Below, one piece after another: positions 10,754-43,454 of a DNA stretch of 64,000 bases (the stretch's first letter is position 1; every line of letters begins with the position of its first letter). The DNA is taken from the IMG/VR virus record IMGVR_UViG_3300031578_000005, positions 32,001 through 96,000 of that record. One strand, 5' to 3'. The position numbers and the translations under genes were made by a program. Source of the stretch: a virus. A model generated the notes under the pieces. It was not told the origin of the DNA. It did not search any database and was given only the letters and a program-made list of their open reading frames with translations.

Positions 10754-11209
10754 ATGTATCAAAAGGCACTTAATGAATTTACCAGATATGGTGGTTTAAT
10801 GAATTATCCGACAAAATATGTCGAACAATGGAAGGATATTATTATTAACAATTTTATGTATCTGGATGTTATTACAATGTTTTTGGGCCATACTAGTTAT
10901 TTCGATGTTGATACTTTTAACGATGTCGTATTATACGATGATGGGAATGAAGATAATTATGTTCATGATTGGAACGATGCAATGGAATATATTGAAAAAA
11001 TGGGATATGATGATTTTTTAGATAACATCTTACCGCATTTCTCAAATGGTCAGGATTTAATTAGTGATTATGGTCTGGAACCACTAAGAAAAATAGTTGA
11101 AGAATTATATGGTGAAACCGATCCTAATAAAATATTGGTTTTAATTAATAGAGCATTAGATATTTCACATCAGAGATCGAATTTATCAGAATTATTTATT
11201 GAGGGTTAA
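10754..11209 (+). pseudogene. 5' part of a phage gene interrupted by an IS607-family element
   Basis: ends ...LFIEG at the IS junction; continues in frame at 15926; probable extra break near 10735 (upstream MTEDQYY... ORF from 10647). Confidence 0.75.
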
Positions 11210-11301
11210 TCAACTGCTACGATAATATTACACAAAATTATACAATATTTAATAAAAATTAACAAAATTTTTCGTATTTTTACAAAAAATATACTATTTA
11301 T

Positions 11302-11517
11302 ATGAAAAGAAGAAATAAAATTATGGAAAATTTGAAGAACCAATCGTTGAAAGTTGTTCGTGTTGACAAACATGAATTTGAACTTGATAACGGGGATGTA
11401 TATCCGATACCTTTCGAATTGGATGTTGATGAAGATATTTCCGTTGAAGAATTTCAGAAGATTCTGGACTCTTCAAAAGAACTGATGCTAAAGATACTTG
11501 AACAGTCAAATGAATAA
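11302..11517 (+). CDS. small hypothetical protein inside the IS
   Basis: 71 aa ORF overlapping tnpA start. Confidence 0.6.
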   Translation: MKRRNKIMENLKNQSLKVVRVDKHEFELDNGDVYPIPFELDVDEDISVEEFQKILDSSKELMLKILEQSNE

Positions 11518-12166
11518 GTTATTATCCATACAACAAGTATCTCTGACTCTTGGTGTCACCAAGAAAACATTAAGGATATGGGATAACGAAGGTAAACTCA
11601 TATCTGTTAAAACCGTTGGTGGACACCGTAAATACCGTGAGGAAGACATTAACAACTACATGGGTGAACACAGTGTCGAAGTTGTTATAACTGGTGTCGC
11701 CACATATAGTCGTGTCAGTTCACATGAACAGAAAACCAAAGGAGATTTGGACAGACAGTCTCAGAGGATTTCTGAATACTGTGCGAAGAAAAAATATAGT
11801 GTTGAACATATTATTAAAGATGTCGGGTCTGGACTTTCGGACACCCGTGTTGGTTTTGTTAAACTCGTGGATTTGGTTATTAAGAAAAAAATTAGTAAAA
11901 TTGTAATCGAAAACAAAGACCGTCTTACCAGATTTCAATTCAACCTGATTAAGACATTCTTTAACAGTTATGATGTTGAGCTGGAATGTGTGGACAATAA
12001 CAACATATCCAATGAGGAAGAATTCGTGAACGACATCATGATGCTCATGGCTTCGTTCTCTGGAAAACTTTACGGGAAGCGTAGCGTTAAGCGTAAAAAA
12101 GAATTGAAAGAAGAAAAATTGAAGTTACAACAATTAAAAGAGAAAAATGAACAACCAGTGGTTTGA
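11498..12166 (+). CDS. tnpA: IS607-family transposase (MerR HTH + serine recombinase)
   Basis: TLRIWDNEGK...GGHRKY HTH; YSRVSS, DVGSGL, KDRLTRF, ASFSGKLYG motifs. Confidence 0.93.
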   Translation: MNSQMNKLLSIQQVSLTLGVTKKTLRIWDNEGKLISVKTVGGHRKYREEDINNYMGEHSVEVVITGVATYSRVSSHEQKTKGDLDRQSQRISEYCAKKKYSVEHIIKDVGSGLSDTRVGFVKLVDLVIKKKISKIVIENKDRLTRFQFNLIKTFFNSYDVELECVDNNNISNEEEFVNDIMMLMASFSGKLYGKRSVKRKKELKEEKLKLQQLKEKNEQPVV

Positions 12167-14783
12167 AAGTAGAAATCTGAGAGTATTAACATACCAAGAT
12201 ACCGCAATTACTAAAGTACAGGAAAGTCTTGAACAGCGTGAGATAACTGTTCTCGCTGCCTGTCCGTCAGCAGGAAAAACTCTTATGACAATTTATATGA
12301 TGGAAGAATGGCTTCGTCAGAATCCCAATAGTAAAATAATGGTACTGGCTCACGGTACAACAATTCTCCGTACACAGTTTCATGATGTTCTCAAAGAGAC
12401 TAAACCAAATTTCACATACAACCTTGTTGAGAAATTCACTCAGTATGATGTTACCGCAGATGTCAATATTTGTTTACCTCAGACTCTTGCAGGAAATGTC
12501 TTGGATAAGATTGACTTTCTCATAGTCGATGAAGCGCACCAATTTTACTTCGCTGAGAAGATGATGAAAGACATCATCAAACAGACCAAGCCGAAGAAAC
12601 AATTGCTTCTCACGGGTACACCATCACCATTCATCAGAAAAGGTTTTAAAATCATTCCTGTTACGCTCAACACGATATTTGATGAAGGTATGATTTCAGA
12701 CCTTTATGTTGAGATAGCAACATCATCGTACACCTTTGACCCGATGACTGACTTCAATCAAGATGATGAACTAAAACTTGGCGTTTATATAAAGGATTCT
12801 GAGACAAAGAAAACACTTGATGACCTTGTAAGTAAGATTGTTGAAAGGCTCAAAAGTATTAGAGGTAATGATTATCAGAACTTGCTTCCCGAATGGTTAC
12901 CCACATTAAAAAGACTACAAAAGACGATGATTGCTTGTAGGAGTCAACAACAGGCAATGCAAGTTAAACATTACTTTGACAAGATGGGTGTTAAATCAGC
13001 ATTAAGCATATCAGACATTGATTATAACAGCAGTGAGATTGAAGTCTTCAAACAAGATGTTGATTGTCTTATTCTTATTGTAGTGGGTCGTGGTATACTT
13101 GGCTTTAATTATCCAGAACTTGTGAATGTTGTTGATATGACCACAAGTCAGAATGTTGATAGGATATATCAGTTGCTCTGTCGTGTTATCCGTAAACATC
13201 CCGAAGGTCAGAAGAAACTATTTTTCAAGGTTGCTCCGAATATTCATAGTGATTACTACAAATACATAATGACCGCAGTATTATCATTGTCAGATGAATC
13301 ATTTTTTACCAAGTTCAACGGGAAGAATTTCTCAGAAATGATTATTCCTATCATCAAAACAAAGAGAGAACATCACGAACCAAATAATGGTGGTGGTAAT
13401 GGTAAACCAAGACCGAAAACATTAAAACCAATTGACTTTGAGGGTTTACCAGTTTTCGAATTTTTCAAAGACCTTTATCATAAGAAGGATGCGTTGCTTC
13501 ATGTTTATGCATACACAACGGTAAGGGATGTACGAGCAGAATTTATGAATTTTAAACCAAGCGGTTATTGGACTTTTGAAAAATGTATGGAAAGTGCATC
13601 ACACTATATTAGTAGTGGAGATTGGTTTAAAAATGATTCGGGTGCATATACTGCTGCCATCGAAAAGAAATGGTTTGAAGCATGTACGAAACATATGTTA
13701 AATGTTAGAAAACCAAATGGTTTTTGGACAAAAGAAAAATGTATAGAAAGTGCATTAAAATATAAAACTAAAAACGAATGGAGAATACATAATAATAAAG
13801 CATTAAATGCTGCATTATTAAATAATTGGTACGATGAATGTACCAAACATATGGTGGATATGCATAATTCATGGACGAAAGAAAAGTGTATTGAGAGTGC
13901 GAAAAAACATAATAATAAAACCGCTTGGTTTAAAAATGACGGGAACGCCTACTCTGCTGCGAAAAATAATGGATGGTTCGAAGAATGCGTTACTCACATG
14001 GAAAAATTAACAGGATTTTGGACATTTGAAGCATGCAAAACAAGTGCTTTAAAATATAATACCGTTAAAGAATGGTTAAAAAATGAAAGTGGAGCATATC
14101 ATAAAGCCAGAAATAATAATTGGTTGGAAGAATGTTGTAGTCATATGTCACGATTAAACAGAAAACCATATACTAAAGAAGAATGTATTGAAAATGCGAA
14201 AAAATATACGAAATTATTCGATTGGAGAAAAGAGAATTGTAATTTATATGCTGCTGTATTAACCAACGGATGGCTGGAAGAATGCACATCACATATGACA
14301 AGATTGGTAAAAAAGCGTTGGACACTTGACACATGTAAAGTAAGTGCTCTCAAATATAATACAAGAAGAGAATGGTTTGATGGCGAAATGTCTGCATATA
14401 ACGCTGCTCGTATAAATAAATGGTTGGATGAATGTTGTCCACATATGACAAGAGAATCGTTTCCAAAAAATTACTGGACGAAAGATAAATGTTTAAAAAT
14501 TGTATTAAATTATCGAACATCCAAAGAATGGAAAATCGGTGATAATAAATCCTATACCGCAGCACAAAGATATGGATGGCTTAATGAATGCACTAATCAC
14601 ATGAAAAATAATTTAAATAACAGCAATATGGAAAACGAAAAATTTGAACAAAGAAACTATGTTAAACCTGCTTGGCAGCCAACTGAAAAGGAAATGGCAC
14701 AGGAGAAACAAATCATTACAAACGAACCAACACCCGAACCTGCTCCAGTAACAACAGAAGGTGATAATACAAACAACGAGTAA
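12147..14783 (+). CDS. SF2 DEAH-box helicase with C-terminal ~50 aa Trp/Cys repeats
   Basis: PSAGKT, VDEAH, LTGTP, YQLLCRVIR; about eight WTKEKC..SAKKY...W...C..HM repeats. Confidence 0.85.
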   Translation: MNNQWFESRNLRVLTYQDTAITKVQESLEQREITVLAACPSAGKTLMTIYMMEEWLRQNPNSKIMVLAHGTTILRTQFHDVLKETKPNFTYNLVEKFTQYDVTADVNICLPQTLAGNVLDKIDFLIVDEAHQFYFAEKMMKDIIKQTKPKKQLLLTGTPSPFIRKGFKIIPVTLNTIFDEGMISDLYVEIATSSYTFDPMTDFNQDDELKLGVYIKDSETKKTLDDLVSKIVERLKSIRGNDYQNLLPEWLPTLKRLQKTMIACRSQQQAMQVKHYFDKMGVKSALSISDIDYNSSEIEVFKQDVDCLILIVVGRGILGFNYPELVNVVDMTTSQNVDRIYQLLCRVIRKHPEGQKKLFFKVAPNIHSDYYKYIMTAVLSLSDESFFTKFNGKNFSEMIIPIIKTKREHHEPNNGGGNGKPRPKTLKPIDFEGLPVFEFFKDLYHKKDALLHVYAYTTVRDVRAEFMNFKPSGYWTFEKCMESASHYISSGDWFKNDSGAYTAAIEKKWFEACTKHMLNVRKPNGFWTKEKCIESALKYKTKNEWRIHNNKALNAALLNNWYDECTKHMVDMHNSWTKEKCIESAKKHNNKTAWFKNDGNAYSAAKNNGWFEECVTHMEKLTGFWTFEACKTSALKYNTVKEWLKNESGAYHKARNNNWLEECCSHMSRLNRKPYTKEECIENAKKYTKLFDWRKENCNLYAAVLTNGWLEECTSHMTRLVKKRWTLDTCKVSALKYNTRREWFDGEMSAYNAARINKWLDECCPHMTRESFPKNYWTKDKCLKIVLNYRTSKEWKIGDNKSYTAAQRYGWLNECTNHMKNNLNNSNMENEKFEQRNYVKPAWQPTEKEMAQEKQIITNEPTPEPAPVTTEGDNTNNE

Positions 14784-14785
14784 CA

Positions 14786-15922
14786 ATGAAACTAATCAGG
14801 TCAACTAAATGTAGTCTGAAGTTCGCTACTGCGAAGAAAAAGAATGATTTACTAACTATCTTGAGTGAATACTCAAAGGTGGTTAATATCTTCATTGACT
14901 ATTTCTGGTTGAATTCTGATAAAGCAACAAAAGGAGAACTTCTTAAACCCGTTGTGGATTTACCACAAGACTCATGGTTGTCGGCTCGACTGAGAAAAGT
15001 TGCAGCAAGAGAAGCAATCGACATGATTAATGCCAGTAAGCAACGATGGAAAGAGAAAGCCGTTAAGCCATTACACAAAGGTCAGAGGATGTATGTTAGT
15101 TGTACCATTGCTGACCTTGTATCAACCAAAAACAATGGTTATAAAACCGAAGACAGCAGACTTTTTGATGCTTGGTTACACATAGCCAGTGTTGGTAATA
15201 AGATGATAATGGACTTGCCGATAAAATACCATAAGCACTTCAACAAATACAATAACATTGGTAGGAGACTGAATTCATATATCATTACCAAGAACTATGT
15301 GCAATTCAGTTTCGAGATAATTACCGAGACAAAGAAGGAAGGTAAACATTGTATCGGTATTGATACAGGTATAAACGCATTGGCAAGTCTTAATAATGGT
15401 AATCAGTATGGTAAGGACATCAAAGGTTGTATCGAGAGAGTTAAAAGATGCAAGCAGAAGTCCAATGGTTATTATGTAGCCAAGAGAGCATTGAAACAAA
15501 GGATTGATGAAACAGCAAAGGAAATATTAGTTAAAGAAACCCCAGATTTAATTGTTGTAGAGCAACTAAAGAAAATGGGATTTAAAAGTAAAGCCAAACG
15601 CTTGTTGGCTAAAAATATCAGGCGTTCTATCGGAACTTGGAATTGGAAGTATTGGTTGAAAAGGTTAGAAGCACAATGCGAGATTAACCGTGTTAGTTTT
15701 CGCAGTGTAGCACCTTATTACACCAGTACAACCTGTCCAATATGTGGTCATTCCGATAGGGGAAATCGACTCGGAGAAGTGTTCTTGTGTCTCAGTTGTG
15801 GTCACGGAGACAATGCAGATATAAATGCGGGTAAGAACATTTTGAATCGATTTCTCACGGGACAATACGGTGCTCGTTACAAGGAAATAAAGGATGTGCA
15901 AGTTTGTGCAGATTTATTTTAA
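14786..15922 (+). CDS. tnpB: TnpB RNA-guided nuclease
   Basis: RuvC GIDTG, VVEQL, NADINA; Zn finger CPICG...CLSCG. Confidence 0.92.
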   Translation: MKLIRSTKCSLKFATAKKKNDLLTILSEYSKVVNIFIDYFWLNSDKATKGELLKPVVDLPQDSWLSARLRKVAAREAIDMINASKQRWKEKAVKPLHKGQRMYVSCTIADLVSTKNNGYKTEDSRLFDAWLHIASVGNKMIMDLPIKYHKHFNKYNNIGRRLNSYIITKNYVQFSFEIITETKKEGKHCIGIDTGINALASLNNGNQYGKDIKGCIERVKRCKQKSNGYYVAKRALKQRIDETAKEILVKETPDLIVVEQLKKMGFKSKAKRLLAKNIRRSIGTWNWKYWLKRLEAQCEINRVSFRSVAPYYTSTTCPICGHSDRGNRLGEVFLCLSCGHGDNADINAGKNILNRFLTGQYGARYKEIKDVQVCADLF

Positions 15923-15925
15923 CGG

Positions 15926-16019
15926 TGGTGAAAGTTCATTAAATAGAATTTCAGGCATGAATGAAAATGTCATAAGAATAATCAATGAGGAAATATTAAA
16001 ATTTATTTATTATGAGTAA
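15926..16019 (+). pseudogene. 3' part of the interrupted gene (GESSLNRISGMNENVIRIINEEILKFIYYE*)
   Basis: in frame with the 10754 ORF after removing the IS. Confidence 0.75.
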
Positions 16020-18067: not shown

Positions 18068-18156
18068 CGAGTAGTAGCTCTGTAGCTGGTAGCAGTCCCG
18101 TCTTGGAAACGGGTGGAATATAAAATCCCTCGCAGGTTCGAACCCTGCCTATTCGA
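18068..18156 (+). tRNA. tRNA-Pro(TGG), long variable region
   Basis: CCCGT-ctTGGaa-ACGGG; GGTTCGAACCC. Confidence 0.8.
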
Positions 18157-18214
18157 CTGGTAGTCAAAGAGTTATATTGATTTCTACTTTGACTGTAAAA
18201 AAATCCATATATAT

Positions 18215-24413: not shown

Positions 24414-24776
24414 GGGGGTGACCGGATTTGACAGCATGTTAGACTGGTAATGTAAGCAGGTAGTAGTTGAATCAGGCTACTTTAAAAAGGTTCAAAGTTA
24501 TAAACGCAAACAATTCCGAGGACATTATGTCCATTCCGACTTCACACTTAATTGTGGGAAGAAGTGCATTTGCAGAGAAAACTGAACTCGCATTTGCTGC
24601 ATAGGAAATAACTAATACAGTTAAGAACTCCTGAGTTGAAAGGATAAATTTAATACAGTTTCATGTTTGAACTGGTAGAATCAATCAATACTTTGTCGGT
24701 TTAGAGAAATCGAATAAACCTGTAGAAAACGTATTAATCACATGTGTGGACGTGGGTTCGAATCCCACTACCTCCA
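24414..24776 (+). ncRNA. ssrA: tmRNA
   Basis: GGGGGTGACCGGATTTGAC 5' end, tRNA-like 3' end GGTTCGAATCCCACTACCTCCA; tag ORF 24506-24604 ending AFAA*. Confidence 0.92.
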
Positions 24777-24796
24777 CTTAAGTAATTATAAATAAG

Positions 24797-25845: not shown

Positions 25846-26499
25846 ATGGCAAGAAAGGAAAAAACATATCATTTTATTTACAAAACGACCAATCTATTGA
25901 ATGACAAATATTATTATGGAATGCATTCCACTTATGATTTGAATGATGGATATTTAGGTAGTGGTAAAAGGTTGAGATATTCAATAAATAAACACGGAAA
26001 AGAAAATCATGTTAGAGAAATTATTGAATTTTTACCAAATTATAATGAATTGATTAAAAGAGAAGAAGAAATTGTAAATTTAAATGAAATTGCAAAAGAA
26101 AATTGTTTAAATTTAAGAGTTGGAGGTTCTGGTGGTTTGAATGGATTATCTAAGGAATCGTTAATGAAGATTAGAATTGCATCGTCTAATTATATGAAAA
26201 GTTTGTGGAAAAATGGTGGTGAAGAATATCGAAATAAATTCAGTAAAATTAACACAATAAATCTAACAAATGCACATAAAAACAATAAAATAAAATATGA
26301 TAATTTTAAAAACAGAAAACATCGAAATGAAACGATTGAATTAATGAAAAAAAAGAAAATTGGTTTTGGACGTGGAAGCGATAATTCTCAATATAATACC
26401 TGTTGGGTTACAAGAAACGGAATAAATAAAAAAATAAAAAAAGAGAAACTGTCCGAATTCATTAAATTGGGATGGATTAATGGAAGAAAATTTAAATAA
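25846..26499 (+). CDS. GIY-YIG (Seg-like) homing endonuclease with NUMOD3
   Basis: FIYKTTNLLNDKYYYG.HST...YLGSG. Confidence 0.85.
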   Translation: MARKEKTYHFIYKTTNLLNDKYYYGMHSTYDLNDGYLGSGKRLRYSINKHGKENHVREIIEFLPNYNELIKREEEIVNLNEIAKENCLNLRVGGSGGLNGLSKESLMKIRIASSNYMKSLWKNGGEEYRNKFSKINTINLTNAHKNNKIKYDNFKNRKHRNETIELMKKKKIGFGRGSDNSQYNTCWVTRNGINKKIKKEKLSEFIKLGWINGRKFK

Positions 26500-28204: not shown

Positions 28205-28999
28205 ATGGCATATGTATATAAACATCTCAGAAAAGATAATAATGATGTATTCTATATTGGCATTGGATTATCTAAAAATTTTAAACGAGCATATTCTAAA
28301 TGTAATAGAAATAACTATTGGAAAAATATTGTGAATAAAGTAGATTATATTATTGAAATTATTCATACAAATATTACATGGGAAGAAGCATGTAATATTG
28401 AAATAAAATTAATAAAAGAATATGGTCGAAAAGATTTGAATGAGGGTGAATTGGTTAATATGACTAACGGTGGAGATGGTATTGTTGGGTTAATTCAGAC
28501 TGATGAACATAGAAGAAAAAATAGTGAAGCAAATAAAGGAAGACCTAAAAGTACCAAACATATTGAAAAATTCAAAAATAGAATTCAGTCTGATGAAACC
28601 AAACGAAAAATTAGTTTAAAGAATAAAGGAAGAATTTGTACTGATGAAACCAAACGAAAAATTAGTGATAAATTAAAAAATAAGATGATTGGTGATAAAA
28701 ATCCGTTCTTTGGTAAAGAACATACTAATAAAGCTAAAGAACAAATAAGTAATTCCTTGAAAGGACGCAAATTGTCCGAAACAACAAAAAATAAAATATC
28801 TGAATCAAATAAAGGAAAAACTCGCATAATTTCCGAAAAATCAAAAATTAAAATGAGTATTTCTGCAAAACATAGAAACATTAGACCACCATCAAGAAAA
28901 GGAACGTGTTGGGTAACAAAAAATGGTGTAACTAAATCAATTAAAATTAATGATTTAGATTTTTACATTTTTGATGGTTGGGTAAGAGGACGTAAGTAA
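28205..28999 (+). CDS. GIY-YIG-like homing endonuclease with NUMOD3 repeats
   Basis: YVYKH...FYIGIG...LVNMTNGGDG; repeated ETKRKIS. Confidence 0.85.
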   Translation: MAYVYKHLRKDNNDVFYIGIGLSKNFKRAYSKCNRNNYWKNIVNKVDYIIEIIHTNITWEEACNIEIKLIKEYGRKDLNEGELVNMTNGGDGIVGLIQTDEHRRKNSEANKGRPKSTKHIEKFKNRIQSDETKRKISLKNKGRICTDETKRKISDKLKNKMIGDKNPFFGKEHTNKAKEQISNSLKGRKLSETTKNKISESNKGKTRIISEKSKIKMSISAKHRNIRPPSRKGTCWVTKNGVTKSIKINDLDFYIFDGWVRGRK

Positions 29000-31325: not shown

Positions 31326-32039
31326 ATGGCAAATAATAAAAAGAAAGTAACTACTGTAGTTACTACAACAACAGAAATCATTAATAATCCCATCAATGAA
31401 AAAACTCAAATAATCTGTATTCTTGATAGAAGTGGTTCTATGTCAAGTATTATGTCAGACAGTATTGGTGGATTTAATACTTTTCTTAAACAGCAAAAGG
31501 AATTAAAAGACGAAGCAACATTAACAATTGCATTATTTGATGACAAATATGAAATGCTTTATGATGATGTTGACATTAAAAAAGTTGATGAACTCACCAA
31601 TAAGATTTGGTATCCTCGTGGAACTACTGCATTATATGATGCAATTGGAAAGACAATTAATACCGTTAAAGCAAATCATTTAAAATCTGGCAACGAAAAA
31701 CCCACCAAAGTACTGGTATGTATTGTAACTGATGGACATGAAAATGCCAGTAGCGAATATGGACATGACATGATTAAAAAACTCATTAAAGATTGTGAAG
31801 ATGATGATTGGAATTTTATTTATTTTGGCGCAAACCAAGATGCATTTGCAGTAGGAAATTCACTTAATATTAGTGGAAATAATACATACACTTATACATC
31901 TACCAGTACTGGTGTTCAAGATATGTCATTTATATTAAGCAATACTGTAACTAGCTATCGTTCAATGAATACTAGTGATAGTAATTTTAAATATTCCTCC
32001 AAACATTTGATTGATTCAAAAAATAATGAAGATAATTAA
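31326..32039 (+). CDS. vWA domain protein
   Basis: ILDRSGSM MIDAS, TALYDAIG, VTDGHENAS. Confidence 0.88.
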   Translation: MANNKKKVTTVVTTTTEIINNPINEKTQIICILDRSGSMSSIMSDSIGGFNTFLKQQKELKDEATLTIALFDDKYEMLYDDVDIKKVDELTNKIWYPRGTTALYDAIGKTINTVKANHLKSGNEKPTKVLVCIVTDGHENASSEYGHDMIKKLIKDCEDDDWNFIYFGANQDAFAVGNSLNISGNNTYTYTSTSTGVQDMSFILSNTVTSYRSMNTSDSNFKYSSKHLIDSKNNEDN

Positions 32040-36046: not shown

Positions 36047-36139
36047 ATGAAAGACTGGTTTGAAAGTAAAGGTCTTAAGGTTTTGACATACCAAACAGAC
36101 ACAATCGAAAAAGTTAATGAAAGTTTAAAATATGGGTAA
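36047..36139 (+). pseudogene. N-terminal remnant of a paralog of the IS607 cargo helicase
   Basis: MKDWFESKGLKVLTYQTDTIEKVNESL vs MNNQWFESRNLRVLTYQDTAITKVQESL. Confidence 0.75.
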
Positions 36140-36183
36140 GTATAGAGTAAAGATAACAGTAGCAGTTGACCCAAAAACTCAAG

Positions 36184-37107
36184 TTAATTAATTAATCCAT
36201 TATTAAGTTCATTAACAATATTTTGTTTATAATTTATACGCATTAATTTAATATTGTTTTCAATACAAAACTTATTTTTAATTTCATCATGTTTTTGAAT
36301 TAATATTAAATTGTCCACGCCCCCCCAAATCTTTTTAGGTATGAAATGTTGACTACCATCAAATTCAATACATATGTTATATTCGGGTAAATAAAAATCG
36401 AAAGGTAATGATCTATTATCTTTACATTCATCGAATCTCATTTGTTCTACAAAATTAATATTTTTTTCATTTAAATATTTAATTATAGTTAATTCACCCT
36501 TAGATTTTCTACAATTAGGACAACCACTGTTATTATGAATAAAATTACGGTAGACTGGATTCCATGTAAAATTACAATGAATACACTTAACATTCAACCT
36601 AACCTTTGCTCCAGAATACGAGCCACCAATAAAACCATTAAATTTATATTTTTTTTCACTACATATTTTATTAATAACATTAATTGCCGATTCTTCTGAC
36701 CTCATTAAGGTATTACCACATACTGGACAACCACTATTTTTAATAACGAAATTATTATAGTTTGGTTGCCAAATATGTCCGTCTTTTAAACATTTAACAT
36801 TAAATTTAGATTTTGTATTAATTTTTTCATTATTGAAACCAATAAATTCAAAATTTTTATCTGAACAAATTTTAATAATATCTGATTTAATTACATCCTT
36901 TGTTTTCTTTATTGTATTAGAGCATTTGGGGCATCCTGTTTTTTTTGAAATAAATGAAACATATGTGGGTTGCCAGATATGTAAATCTTTATTACATTGT
37001 AACATTAATTTACTTTTATTATTTTTATAGGTATTATTAACAAAACCTAAAAATGTGTAATTCATTTCCTCACACCTATCATTTATTTTATTTATTATAT
37101 TATCCAT
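36184..37107 (-). CDS. Zn-ribbon repeat endonuclease (Vsr/DUF559-like C-terminus)
   Basis: three GCPxC repeats; PFDFYLP..IEFDGSQH. Confidence 0.8.
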   Translation of the reverse strand: MDNIINKINDRCEEMNYTFLGFVNNTYKNNKSKLMLQCNKDLHIWQPTYVSFISKKTGCPKCSNTIKKTKDVIKSDIIKICSDKNFEFIGFNNEKINTKSKFNVKCLKDGHIWQPNYNNFVIKNSGCPVCGNTLMRSEESAINVINKICSEKKYKFNGFIGGSYSGAKVRLNVKCIHCNFTWNPVYRNFIHNNSGCPNCRKSKGELTIIKYLNEKNINFVEQMRFDECKDNRSLPFDFYLPEYNICIEFDGSQHFIPKKIWGGVDNLILIQKHDEIKNKFCIENNIKLMRINYKQNIVNELNNGLIN

Positions 37108-40341: not shown

Positions 40342-40430
40342 ATCGGAATGCTTGAGTGGTTTAAAAGCGTGGTCTGCAAAACCAATGGTAATCAATGAAT
40401 TACACGTGAGTTCGAATCTCATTTCCGATT
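40342..40430 (+). tRNA. tRNA-Cys(GCA), long variable arm
   Basis: TGGT-ctGCAaa-ACCA; U discriminator. Confidence 0.8.
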
Positions 40431-40475
40431 CAAAGTTAATTTAAGTTTAAACTATTTATGTAAAATGTTATTAAC

Positions 40476-41676: not shown

Positions 41677-41769
41677 GGTAGAGTACTCAAATTGGTAAAG
41701 AGGTTTGTCCTGAAAACAAATAGGTCGTGTGATGAGCATGATGCGTGGGTTCGAACCCCACTTCTACCT
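41677..41769 (+). tRNA. tRNA-Ser(TGA)
   Basis: TTTGT-ccTGAaa-ACAAA; long variable arm. Confidence 0.85.
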
Positions 41770-42034
41770 CAAACAATTTAACCTGCAAGTTATTTTGTTT
41801 CTCATACAATACTATAAACAAGTTGTTATTGCAGTAATGAATTGATGTAAAGTATGTGTAAATTTTGGGTTGCATAAGAGGCTTTATTTTAATGTTCTGT
41901 GGATTGTTGTATTATACCCGTGGTTGGCAACTCGGAAAATAAGAAAACATTTGAGAGACATTATTATACTTGTAAAATGGTATTGAATAAGTGAGTAGGA
42001 GGCTCACCCCAAAATTTTTAATTTATTATTAAAT

Positions 42035-42224: not shown

Positions 42225-43454
42225 ATGCAATTAGTTGAACAACATATTATCAATCGTAATCATATATTCTATAATGAATGTGATTCGTTATGTTTTAAAA
42301 CTAAAAATCTATATAATTCATGTTTATATGTCATACGTCAGGCATATATCAATGATAAGGTTAATTTATTATATGATTTACACTCATTAATGAAAGATAC
42401 TGAACAGTATAAAGAACTACCCGCTAAAGTGTCTTCCACAGTGTTGTTAATGATTCAAAAGAATTTCAAATCTTATTTCAAATCAAATGCAGAATTTTAT
42501 AAAAATTCATCTAAATTTAAAGATAGACCTAAATTACCCAATTATTTGGATAAAATAAATGGTAGATATTTTGCTTCATATACAAATCAAGCCATATCAA
42601 AAAAAGTGTTTAATAAATCACATAAAATATTATTATCTAAAACCAACATCGAGTTAACAACCAAAATAGTTGATTTTAATATCATCGATTGTGTTAGAAT
42701 TGTACCGAGATTAGACCACTATGTTATTGAAATAGTATATACCATTCCAGATAAACCTAAATTACCTAACAATAATAAATATTTATCTATTGATTTTGGT
42801 GTTAATAATTTAGCAACAATAACGTCAAATGTTAAAGATGTTAAACCTATTATTATTAATGGTAGACCATTAAAATCAATTAATCAATATTATAACAAAA
42901 AACTGGCACACTATAAATCTAAATTAGAATTGATTAATAAAAAGAAACATAGCAATAGGACAAGGAAATTGACTAACAAAAGAAAAAATAAAGTTGATTA
43001 TTATTTACATAAAGCAAGTAAGACAATTGTTAGTTTAACAAAAAACAATAATATTAACACCATAATAATAGGTAAGAACGATAATTGGAAACAAGGTATC
43101 AACATGACAAAGGCTAATAATCAAAACTTTGTTAATATACCACATAGTAGATTTATAGATATGATTATTTATAAATGCGAAATAGAAGGAATCAATGTTA
43201 TACTACAAGAAGAAAGTTACACAAGTAAAGCATCTTTTTTAAACTTAGATAATATACCTATTTATGGTGATAATCAAAAAAAGCATTTCAGTGGTTATCG
43301 TTATAACAGGGGTTTATATAAAATAAGAGGAAGAAAAGAATTTATTAATGCAGATGTGAATGGTAGTTATAACATATTAAGAAAAGCAATCCCAAAAGCA
43401 TTTGCTGATGGGATAGAGGGTATAGGAGTATATCCAATTAAACTTATGATTTAA
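42225..43454 (+). CDS. tnpB: solo TnpB (IS200/IS605, IS1341-like)
   Basis: SIDFGVNN, LHKAS, QEESYTSK, INADVNG; no Zn-finger Cys; no tnpA adjacent. Confidence 0.88.
   Translation: MQLVEQHIINRNHIFYNECDSLCFKTKNLYNSCLYVIRQAYINDKVNLLYDLHSLMKDTEQYKELPAKVSSTVLLMIQKNFKSYFKSNAEFYKNSSKFKDRPKLPNYLDKINGRYFASYTNQAISKKVFNKSHKILLSKTNIELTTKIVDFNIIDCVRIVPRLDHYVIEIVYTIPDKPKLPNNNKYLSIDFGVNNLATITSNVKDVKPIIINGRPLKSINQYYNKKLAHYKSKLELINKKKHSNRTRKLTNKRKNKVDYYLHKASKTIVSLTKNNNINTIIIGKNDNWKQGINMTKANNQNFVNIPHSRFIDMIIYKCEIEGINVILQEESYTSKASFLNLDNIPIYGDNQKKHFSGYRYNRGLYKIRGRKEFINADVNGSYNILRKAIPKAFADGIEGIGVYPIKLMI

Follow-up and report, generated by a model that had tools for sequence, protein, structure and literature searches.

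What kind of unit divides one gene of a large virus in two, and why does it carry a helicase gene between the two genes of a transposon? The question is raised by a stretch of 64,000 nucleotides (nt; hereafter, the window) that spans positions 32,001 to 96,000 of the IMG/VR virus record IMGVR_UViG_3300031578_000005. Positions 11206-15925 of the window form a discrete transposon of the IS607 family (IS, insertion sequence), 4.72 kb long, which encodes in order a small protein here called orf71, the serine transposase TnpA, an 878-amino-acid (aa) superfamily 2 (SF2) helicase, and TnpB, a homologue of RNA-guided nucleases. The element is best read as a single representative of an IS607-family lineage whose hosts are very large phages of soil and peat, with the helicase as its cargo, a reading to which we assign a probability of roughly 0.85. 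According to the list of open reading frames (ORFs), all four genes lie on the + strand and are closely packed, neighbours either overlapping by 20 nt or standing 2 nt apart. The features on which the argument draws are as follows.

10754 to 11209, + strand: 5' part of the interrupted phage gene, 151 aa, ending ...SELFIEG, with a TAA stop supplied by the first bases of the element.
11204 to 11206, no strand: left junction GGT, consisting of the GG core dinucleotide (11204-11205) and a T that is also present at the right junction.
11206 to 11301, + strand: non-coding left end, which holds the conserved core TTAATCAACTGCTAC and recurring TTAACA-like words, with a run rich in A/T 5' of orf71.
11302 to 11517, + strand: orf71, a small acidic protein, overlapping the start of tnpA by 20 nt.
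11498 to 12166, + strand: tnpA, a 222 aa IS607-type serine transposase.
12147 to 14783, + strand: putative helicase cargo, an 878 aa SF2 DEAH helicase or translocase.
14786 to 15922, + strand: tnpB, a 378 aa RNA-guided nuclease homologue.
15743 to 15925, + strand: predicted omegaRNA scaffold, comprising a covarying structure (15743-15881) and a conserved 3' tail that ends in AACGG.
15924 to 15926, no strand: right junction GGT, where the C at 15923 makes CGG and so differs at -3 from the GGG on the left.
15926 to 15945, + strand: predicted guide segment, TGGTGAAAGTTCATTAAATA, with an assumed length of ~16-20 nt, placed from the scaffold boundary and from published IS607 TnpB.
15926 to 16019, + strand: displaced 3' part of the interrupted gene, GESSLNRISGMNENVIRIINEEILKFIYYE, followed by its stop codon.

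The insertion lies 31 codons upstream of the end of the phage gene, for which profile searches matched no Pfam or PHROG family, and the G+C fraction is ~0.33-0.39 within the element versus ~0.27 in its flanks. On the left, the letters read ...ttattgagGG/ttaatcaactgc (here and below, the slash marks the junction), and the G at 11203 completes a GGG motif resembling a target or a transposon-adjacent motif (TAM); on the right they read ...ttttaacGG/tggtgaaag, with the GG at 15924-15925. The tnpB stop codon (TAA, 15920-15922) falls 3 nt from the end of the element at 15925, as the original prediction for this DNA had it. Beyond ...TTTTAACGG at 15925, the frame GESSLNRISG...YE remains open as far as its stop at 16019, and the proposal that excision restores the reading frame likewise holds, for joining 10754-11205 to 15926-16019 yields one frame of 181 aa with a single terminal stop. 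A scan for promoters and terminators was at chance level (20 promoter-like sites versus 23.6 expected from shuffles).

A natural counterpart of this rejoined gene exists. When IMG/VR was queried with the truncated flanking protein, one relative was found, the viral contig L003, in which the target gene is uninterrupted and free of the element (221 aa, ...SDLSELFIEGGEASLDRISGTNESVRRIV...). The protein that spans the junction position in this intact gene reads ...SELFIEGGEASLDRISG..., and the DNA of the empty site is tttatagagGGTGGTgaggc. The surroundings also correspond, with a gene of 666/675 aa upstream and a DUF6171 gene downstream in both sequences. The 5' part of the interrupted gene is 75% identical to the intact gene, and the rejoined frame of 181 aa aligns with it without a gap across the junction (130 of 178 columns identical, including 17 of the 27 past the junction). 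Comparison of the window with this empty site reveals no duplicated target bases. The crossover had been placed at GG, and a GG-type junction does fit; nevertheless, it is GGT, not merely GG, that is common to both junctions of the window, and the cut position is therefore fixed only within 3 nt, such that crossovers at GG and at GT are indistinguishable.

The same ends recur elsewhere. A query with the helicase returned seven loci, of which three (L004, L008, and L009) carry orf71, tnpA, helicase, and tnpB in that order. In DNA comparison, the similarity of these three to the window begins at 11200-11203, and in L004 and L008 it ends at 15926; the blastn match of L009 ends at 15886, and its AACGG right end was located by motif and alignment. 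The flanks of all three are unrelated. Given the empty site in L003 and the same ends in unrelated flanks, the 4.72 kb block is one mobile unit. A fourth locus, L007, is a tnpA-deleted derivative in which 57 nt of the left end are joined straight to the helicase. The original prediction of an IS607-family element with exact ends is thus borne out by the profile matches described below, by the empty site, and by the ends of the relatives. It had called for a search for empty alleles and for copies with the same cargo, which L003 on the one hand and L004, L008, and L009 on the other now supply, and it had named as evidence against itself a helicase present at this locus without the transposon or flanking-gene homologues devoid of FIEGG; the L003 gene contains FIEGG, and there is no helicase at its locus.

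A wider set of relatives, gathered with TnpB and TnpA as queries (45 and 23 loci, respectively), defines both ends of the lineage. The 32 distinct right ends can be aligned up to AACGG, after which they diverge fully; 31 of them read AACGG/T, the remaining one (L021) reads AACGA/T (that is, CGA), and the C at -3 is kept in 32/32. Left ends could be aligned in 21 of 24 regions, and every one of the 21 is GGG/T, followed by a core like TAATCAACTGCT or ATAAGAACAGTT. At -4, directly before the left GGG, A occurs 8 times, G 11 times, T twice, and C never (n=21), so that the target here is RGGG-like, with GGG on the left of the element against CGG on its right. The original prediction had also given a circle junction, ttaacGGttaa; comparison of the ends indicates that its palindromic appearance is not shared by the relatives in general. 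In the passages of bioRxiv 10.1101/2023.11.20.567912 cited here, the IS607 TnpA of Clostridium botulinum has the target TGGG with GG strictly required, the TAM of TnpB is TGGG, the same as the transposase target, the omegaRNA scaffold ends in ...UCGG, and self is distinguished from non-self at -3 (right-end TCGG versus TGGG). Judged from its ends, the present lineage follows this pattern, in that the motif predicted as TAM is also the target motif, and the right end of the element itself does not contain it.

TnpA bears out the family assignment. In TnpA, a MerR_1 helix-turn-helix (HTH) domain (Pfam, residues 10-52) is N-terminal and a Resolvase domain (68-205) C-terminal, with the motif YSRVSS at residues 70-75; the protein scores 179.4 bits on NCBIfam NF033518 (IS607 family transposase; cut-off 110) and belongs to phrog_6620. 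As is characteristic of IS607, tnpB lies downstream of tnpA, on the same strand and within the same ends. TnpB matches Pfam Cas12f1-like_TNB at 56.4 bits (cut-off 26.3), and a sequence search aligns it with PDB chains of TnpB, Cas12f, and CasPhi over residues ~240-375 only, which is its C-terminal third. It contains the words GIDTG (191), VVEQL (257), and NADINAG (343), which we take, following the usual motif pattern, to be a candidate RuvC catalytic triad, as well as two CxxC pairs whose cysteines (317, 335) are candidates for a zinc ribbon. Among isolated phages, all TnpB matches are below 60% identity (24-33% among the matches listed), the helicase has no match, and no DNA relative of the element was found beyond ~100-150 nt of the repeat region. 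The window also encodes a second, unrelated TnpB at 42225-43454 (+ strand; 409 aa, OrfB_IS605 plus TNB, 165.9 bits on guided_TnpB), which has no tnpA and lies inside a tRNA array, between tRNA-Phe and tRNA-Gly.

The 3' end of tnpB carries a second signal. From an alignment (A1) of the last 220 nt of 30 relatives, whose TnpB identity is 62-97%, RNAalifold derived a consensus of 45 pairs. Pairing is preserved in 95.8% of the paired cells, against 39-46% when the partners are slid by 1-3 columns, and compensatory change, with both partners altered, is seen in 18 pairs, compared with 4-8 after sliding; 0/500 shuffles reach the observed values. The column pair 80-137, for instance, is AU in 14 sequences, GC in 13, and GU in 3, and the pair 158-174 is GC in 18, AU in 11, and UA in 1. 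The covarying structure lies within the last ~180 nt of tnpB (15743-15881) and is followed by a conserved tail to 15925, with sequence conservation ending exactly after AACGG(T). Covariation of distant codons within a coding region points to a constraint on RNA. The covariation backs the original proposal that an omegaRNA scaffold, which remains a predicted RNA, overlaps the 3' end of tnpB. The accompanying proposal, that the guide starts at the flank TGGTGAAAGTTC... and is aimed at the empty allele, agrees with the scaffold boundary and the IS607 mechanism, and these findings support a predicted omegaRNA whose guide would be that flank.

The smallest gene, orf71, lies upstream of tnpA and overlaps it in nearly all relatives, down to 46% identity, and a 22-sequence alignment of its product has nine invariant columns. 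Since orf71 accompanies tnpA so consistently, it belongs to the core of the lineage rather than to its cargo; of the two passenger genes that had been proposed, the helicase keeps that description and orf71 does not. The AlphaFold2 (AF2) model of orf71 (mean predicted local distance difference test, pLDDT, 87.7) is confident and runs from a helix through three strands to a long helix. Profile searches matched it to no family in Pfam, PHROG, or NCBIfam, nor was there any PDB fold match at E<=0.001, and a predicted complex of orf71 with TnpA scored 0.20 against a mark of 0.32, which is evidence neither way.

The helicase consists of an SF2 core (~1-405), about seven helical repeats of ~50 aa (~475-816), and a disordered tail (824-878). 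It matches Pfam ResIII (58.8 bits versus 22.5) and DEAD (33.2 versus 26), with Helicase_C below its cut-off (18 versus 23.5), and in PHROG it falls into phrog_16 (DNA helicase), its repeat region into phrog_20046. The motifs PSAGKT (40), VDEAH (127), TGTPS (156), and QLLCRVIR (342) can be recognised, so that the hallmarks of SF2 (two RecA-like lobes, Walker A, DEAH, and motifs III and VI) are all present. The AF2 model has a pLDDT of 81 overall and mostly 82-95 over residues 1-400; Foldseek retrieves Snf2-like ATPases, RadD, and type ISP restriction enzymes at E ~3e-12 with 11-17% identity, and a search of PDB sequences gave no match. The repeats follow the pattern W-T-x-E-x-C ... A-Y-x-A-A ... 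W-x-x-E-C-x-x-H-M, and neighbours of the repeat region in the Atlas include phage proteins with GIY-YIG, DUF723, or NUMOD1 domains, which is a lead only. The protein may translocate along or unwind DNA while its repeat array, by binding DNA, serves as a tether. The DNA of the disordered tail (window 14609-14740) is 84% identical to positions 8470-8600 of L005, which lie 3' of the stop codon of a stand-alone helicase gene; the identity of the helicase cores of the window and L005 is lower, at ~70% in DNA. In L009 and L024, a separate Lys/Glu/Pro-rich ORF of 50-60 aa occupies the position of the tail before tnpB.

Whether the helicase belongs to the transposon in more than position can be judged from what other members of the lineage carry between tnpA and tnpB. 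In 22 other contigs that show both genes, this slot holds the helicase in three, a spacer of 16-60 nt in four, and unrelated small ORFs (326-857 nt) in most; a YopX gene is found in L018, an M24 peptidase gene in L025, and, in L015, YopX together with a complete further IS607 whose tnpA and tnpB are of another lineage. In L070, where tnpB is only partly on the locus, the slot is filled by 5.4 kb of DNA that encodes a ResIII protein and two methylase-like proteins. The helicase carriers themselves differ, with an extra ORF of 147 aa in L004 and L008 and extra ORFs of 164 aa and 60 aa before tnpB in L009. Deletion remnants of the helicase are also seen: in L024, 17 N-terminal residues are fused to the last repeat, and in L065, ~29 helicase residues are fused to the last third of TnpB. 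From one relative to the next, the DNA that separates tnpA from tnpB is mostly unrelated, so that deletion from the helicase form cannot by itself account for every short form.

The history of the genes points in the same direction. In the TnpB tree, the window groups with the helicase-less L011/L012 (support 96/96), and the four helicase carriers are scattered in one 15-sequence clade (support 100/99); the TnpBs closest to that of the window (97% identity) are in the helicase-less elements L011-L013. In L004 and L008, the helicase as a whole protein is 71-73% identical to that of the window, versus 93-98% for tnpA/tnpB (the N-terminal 460 residues of the helicase alone are 92% identical), and in L009 the corresponding values are 54% and 76-87%. 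The helicase is thus probably optional cargo in a variable tnpA-tnpB slot.

Two of the unusual slots merit description in their own right. The nested IS607 pair of L015 (3341-5118, on the same contig as L058) consists of a serine recombinase of 201 aa that shares 35% identity with the window TnpA, and a 391 aa TnpB with HTH_OrfB_IS605, followed by YopX and small zinc-ribbon-like ORFs. The cargo of L070 (6613-12014) carries genes for a ResIII/DEAD protein of 760 aa and for two methylase-like proteins, one of Eco57I type and the other N6-methylase-like, and looks like a restriction-modification or defence-like block. Among the short forms, the elements of L011, L013, and L012 are 96-97% identical and have a common right flank; the left flank of L012 differs from that of L011/L013, which suggests a rearrangement or deletion beside its left end.

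The helicase family also occurs outside the transposon. A total of 485 homologues were found, many on contigs of 300-500 kb, and three contigs (L005, L006, and L010) carry an 822 aa stand-alone homologue that is 71% identical to the window helicase over the N-terminal 460 residues. The stand-alone gene lies between a ribonucleotide reductase gene and a GIY-YIG-plus-repeat gene with a VWA gene; this synteny was seen in these three contigs, and the VWA gene was not found in five others. At the corresponding site, just behind its own ribonucleotide reductase gene, the window retains the following feature.

36048 to 36139, + strand: stand-alone helicase remnant of 30 codons, MKDWFESKGLKVLTYQTDTIEKVNESLKYG, that is, the first 28 residues of the family and then a stop.

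After the remnant comes an exact reverse-strand copy of an 11-mer of the left-end core, TCAACTGCTAC (36159-36169), with GGG before it on that strand. The window contains two exact copies of this 11-mer, and four with at most one mismatch, compared with 0.52 expected. The remnant allows that the phage now depends on the helicase borne by the transposon. Beyond the 11-mer copy, a reverse ORF (36184-37107) encodes CapR and DUF4379 treble-clef domains. The large subunit of the ribonucleotide reductase is 1255 aa in L005 (2166-5933), against 876 aa in the window, and the extra middle part of the former looks like an intein.

The setting of the element is a very large genome. The window belongs to a 128.5 kb record rated 39% complete, with genes for a T4-type large terminase, a ribonucleotide reductase, an RNA ligase, and a NUMOD3 protein, as well as 31 tRNA genes (17985-48693) and a transfer-messenger RNA (tmRNA) gene (24414-24777), all on the + strand. 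The contigs that carry relatives of the element measure 300-420 kb; two of these contigs are rated complete and one has terminal repeats. By its gene content, the host is a jumbo phage, and the terminase, tRNAs, and tmRNA correct the earlier reading of the host; given this setting, TnpB is the right name for the nuclease homologue, rather than Fanzor. Several of the tRNAs are 84-94 nt long (e.g., Pro 18068-18157, Cys 40342-40431, and Ser 41677-41770). The ORF with the NUMOD3 motif (264 aa, 28205-28999) is homing-endonuclease-like, and the start of a 217 aa ORF at 25846-26499 appears to resemble GIY-YIG proteins.

From these elements, a mode of propagation can be proposed. TnpA would release the element in circular form and integrate it at GGG/T sites, with strand exchange at the GG (or GT) common to both junctions, such that no duplication would be left. 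TnpB would be loaded with an omegaRNA whose scaffold derives from the last ~180 nt of tnpB and ends in ...AACGG and whose guide is the adjoining flank, and the complex would cut alleles in which GGG directly precedes that flank, namely the empty site after excision or an empty site in a co-infecting phage. Once the break was repaired from the occupied copy, the element would be restored or would spread (homing), and the element's own right end, being CGG and not GGG, would be spared. In this scheme, orf71 would be a conserved accessory gene of the lineage, and the helicase, presumably drawn from an accessory helicase family of related jumbo phages, would be dispensable for both transposition and TnpB.

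Several observations weigh against reading the locus as a live member of a mobile lineage with a passenger helicase. TnpB scores 95.8 bits on NCBIfam guided_TnpB, slightly below the cut-off of 100, and matches the IS607_TnpB model weakly (22.5 bits versus 350); an Rfam scan of the omegaRNA region gave no family match; and the published GG rule does not account for the T found after GG at all right ends. The 128.5 kb record holds a single copy of the element, and contigs of two soil runs (X1, the likely source, and X2) carry the occupied allele with 0 differences and the left junction bridged. In the assembled contigs of four runs, no convincing empty-site or circle junction was found: joints such as 11206->16148 have a shorter side of only 25-26 letters and probably come from relatives, and a contig of X3 and X5 that joins 12118 to 14785 is a helicase-less relative. 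The single copy and the identical allele in two samples would suit a fixed relic that is no longer mobile and is inherited with the phage, its ends and genes merely looking intact, as would a report in the passages of PMC10691335 cited here that serine-recombinase/TnpB elements mobilise less often than IS605. We regard such a relic as unlikely, if worth keeping in mind, because all four ORFs are open with catalytic motifs, the ends fit the family consensus, and relatives with 93-98% protein identity occupy different sites in other phages, the last of which implies recent movement of the lineage. That the block is not one element at all, a resident helicase gene merely happening to lie between an independent tnpA and tnpB, is scarcely credible; the family does exist as a resident gene elsewhere, but this explanation is already contradicted by L003, whose empty site lacks all four genes at once, and by the recurrence of the identical block with both ends in unrelated flanks.

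The remaining alternatives concern what the helicase does. The possibility of a helicase-TnpB link was raised by the original prediction, and as a working partner the helicase could unwind or resect DNA at the TnpB cut for copying into a co-infecting phage, or aid TnpA, with the repeat array tethering it to DNA. The operon-like packing favours this view and counts against a passenger (the helicase overlaps tnpA by 20 nt and stops 2 nt before tnpB), as do the orf71-tnpA-helicase-tnpB arrangement kept in three relatives, the resemblance of the core to double-stranded DNA translocases and repair helicases (RadD, Snf2-like), and that of the C-terminal repeats to those of phage GIY-YIG/DUF723/NUMOD homing-endonuclease-like proteins (again as a lead), including the GIY-YIG protein of L005. 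Nevertheless, TnpBs 97% identical to that of the window occur without the helicase, which makes a required partnership unlikely; unrelated genes fill the slot in other relatives; the helicase has diverged far more between elements than tnpA and tnpB; its family stands alone in phages; and it is not present in the complete genomes G007 and G009, both of which carry the lineage. A working partnership is accordingly quite improbable in our estimation. It is also rather doubtful, if somewhat less so, that the element has become addictive, holding the sole working helicase of a phage whose stand-alone copy has been destroyed and which could not afford its loss. The 30-codon remnant stands exactly where related phages keep the full gene, there is no other helicase copy in the 128.5 kb record, and one genome (G006) combines a helicase-less relative of the element with a retained stand-alone helicase; but the record is 39% complete and a further copy may exist, the contig of L009 (G003) has as its only second match a decayed IS copy rather than a stand-alone gene, and the absence of such a helicase from G007 and G009 implies that it is not generally essential. 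A bolder conjecture, which we hold just as tentatively, would make the lineage an RNA-guided gene drive among co-infecting jumbo phages, in which TnpB cuts the empty allele, repair copies the element together with the content of its slot, tnpA and tnpB serve both as the drive and as homology arms for cassette swaps (helicase, peptidase, YopX, methylase block, or another IS), and the present copy is indispensable as bearer of the sole intact helicase. The reading of the element as a copy of a mobile jumbo-phage lineage with an optional helicase cargo remains preferred.

The locus offers a clean natural test case: its ends are exact and are defined on either side by ~30 diverged relatives, an empty site occurs in nature, covariation supports the omegaRNA, the TAM is predicted to be RGGG, and TnpB is compact at 378 aa. 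More broadly, IS607-type elements of large phages exceed tnpA plus tnpB, and their slot turns over by gain, replacement, and internal deletion, a turnover that gives RNA-guided selfish elements a concrete way in which they could carry accessory genes from one phage genome to another. No new kind of system is thereby revealed, and the helicase is probably a passenger.

The closest known systems are IS607 of Helicobacter pylori, the C. botulinum IStron (CboIStron), and their relatives. These likewise encode a serine transposase whose HTH is N-terminal and, behind it in the same orientation, tnpB; they lack inverted repeats, do not duplicate the target, carry GG at each junction, insert at a G-rich sequence (RGGG here, TGGG in Cbo), and have a right end in CGG and an omegaRNA that overlaps the 3' end of tnpB. 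The present element differs from them in the orf71 that precedes tnpA, the variable cargo slot, the T after GG, and the jumbo-phage host, and, in an Rfam scan, it shows no group I intron, unlike CboIStron. Its architecture had been called unusual for IS607, and so it is; nevertheless, it had already been noticed in a survey, for the passages of Altae-Tran et al. 2023 (PMC10691335) cited here describe a 'Ser-3' TnpB branch with an extra small gene and helicase cargo in a serine-TnpA/TnpB element. The likeness is drawn by description, from the extra small gene and the helicase cargo; orf71, unlike the extra gene of 'Ser-3', shows no HTH by profile or fold, and, unlike what can be given for the present element, those passages contain no boundaries, empty sites, or cargo turnover. 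Among the titles and abstracts listed by the literature searches, none reports exact ends, empty sites, or turnover of cargo for phage elements of this kind. The helicase itself resembles the SF2 DEAH enzymes RadD, Snf2-like, and type ISP in its two-lobed RecA-like core and motifs I, II (DEAH), III, and VI, and is set apart from them by its C-terminal array of ~50 aa helical repeats (phrog_20046). At 11-17% sequence identity and with no match among PDB sequences, it is placed in none of these families in particular. In its proposed mode of spread, the element may be compared with the free-standing homing endonucleases of T-even phages (Seg and Mob), which, according to the passages cited here of a 2026 review (PMC13565253), are likewise selfish nuclease genes of large phages that can spread, along with adjacent DNA, into co-infecting relatives by cut-and-repair; the same passages list 'non-restorative homing' of transposons into co-infected phages as a theoretical mode. 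Unlike in Seg and Mob, the nuclease here is predicted to be RNA-guided, its target would be set by the presence or absence of the transposon, and a separate recombinase would carry out transposition, with homing as the putative outcome of repair.

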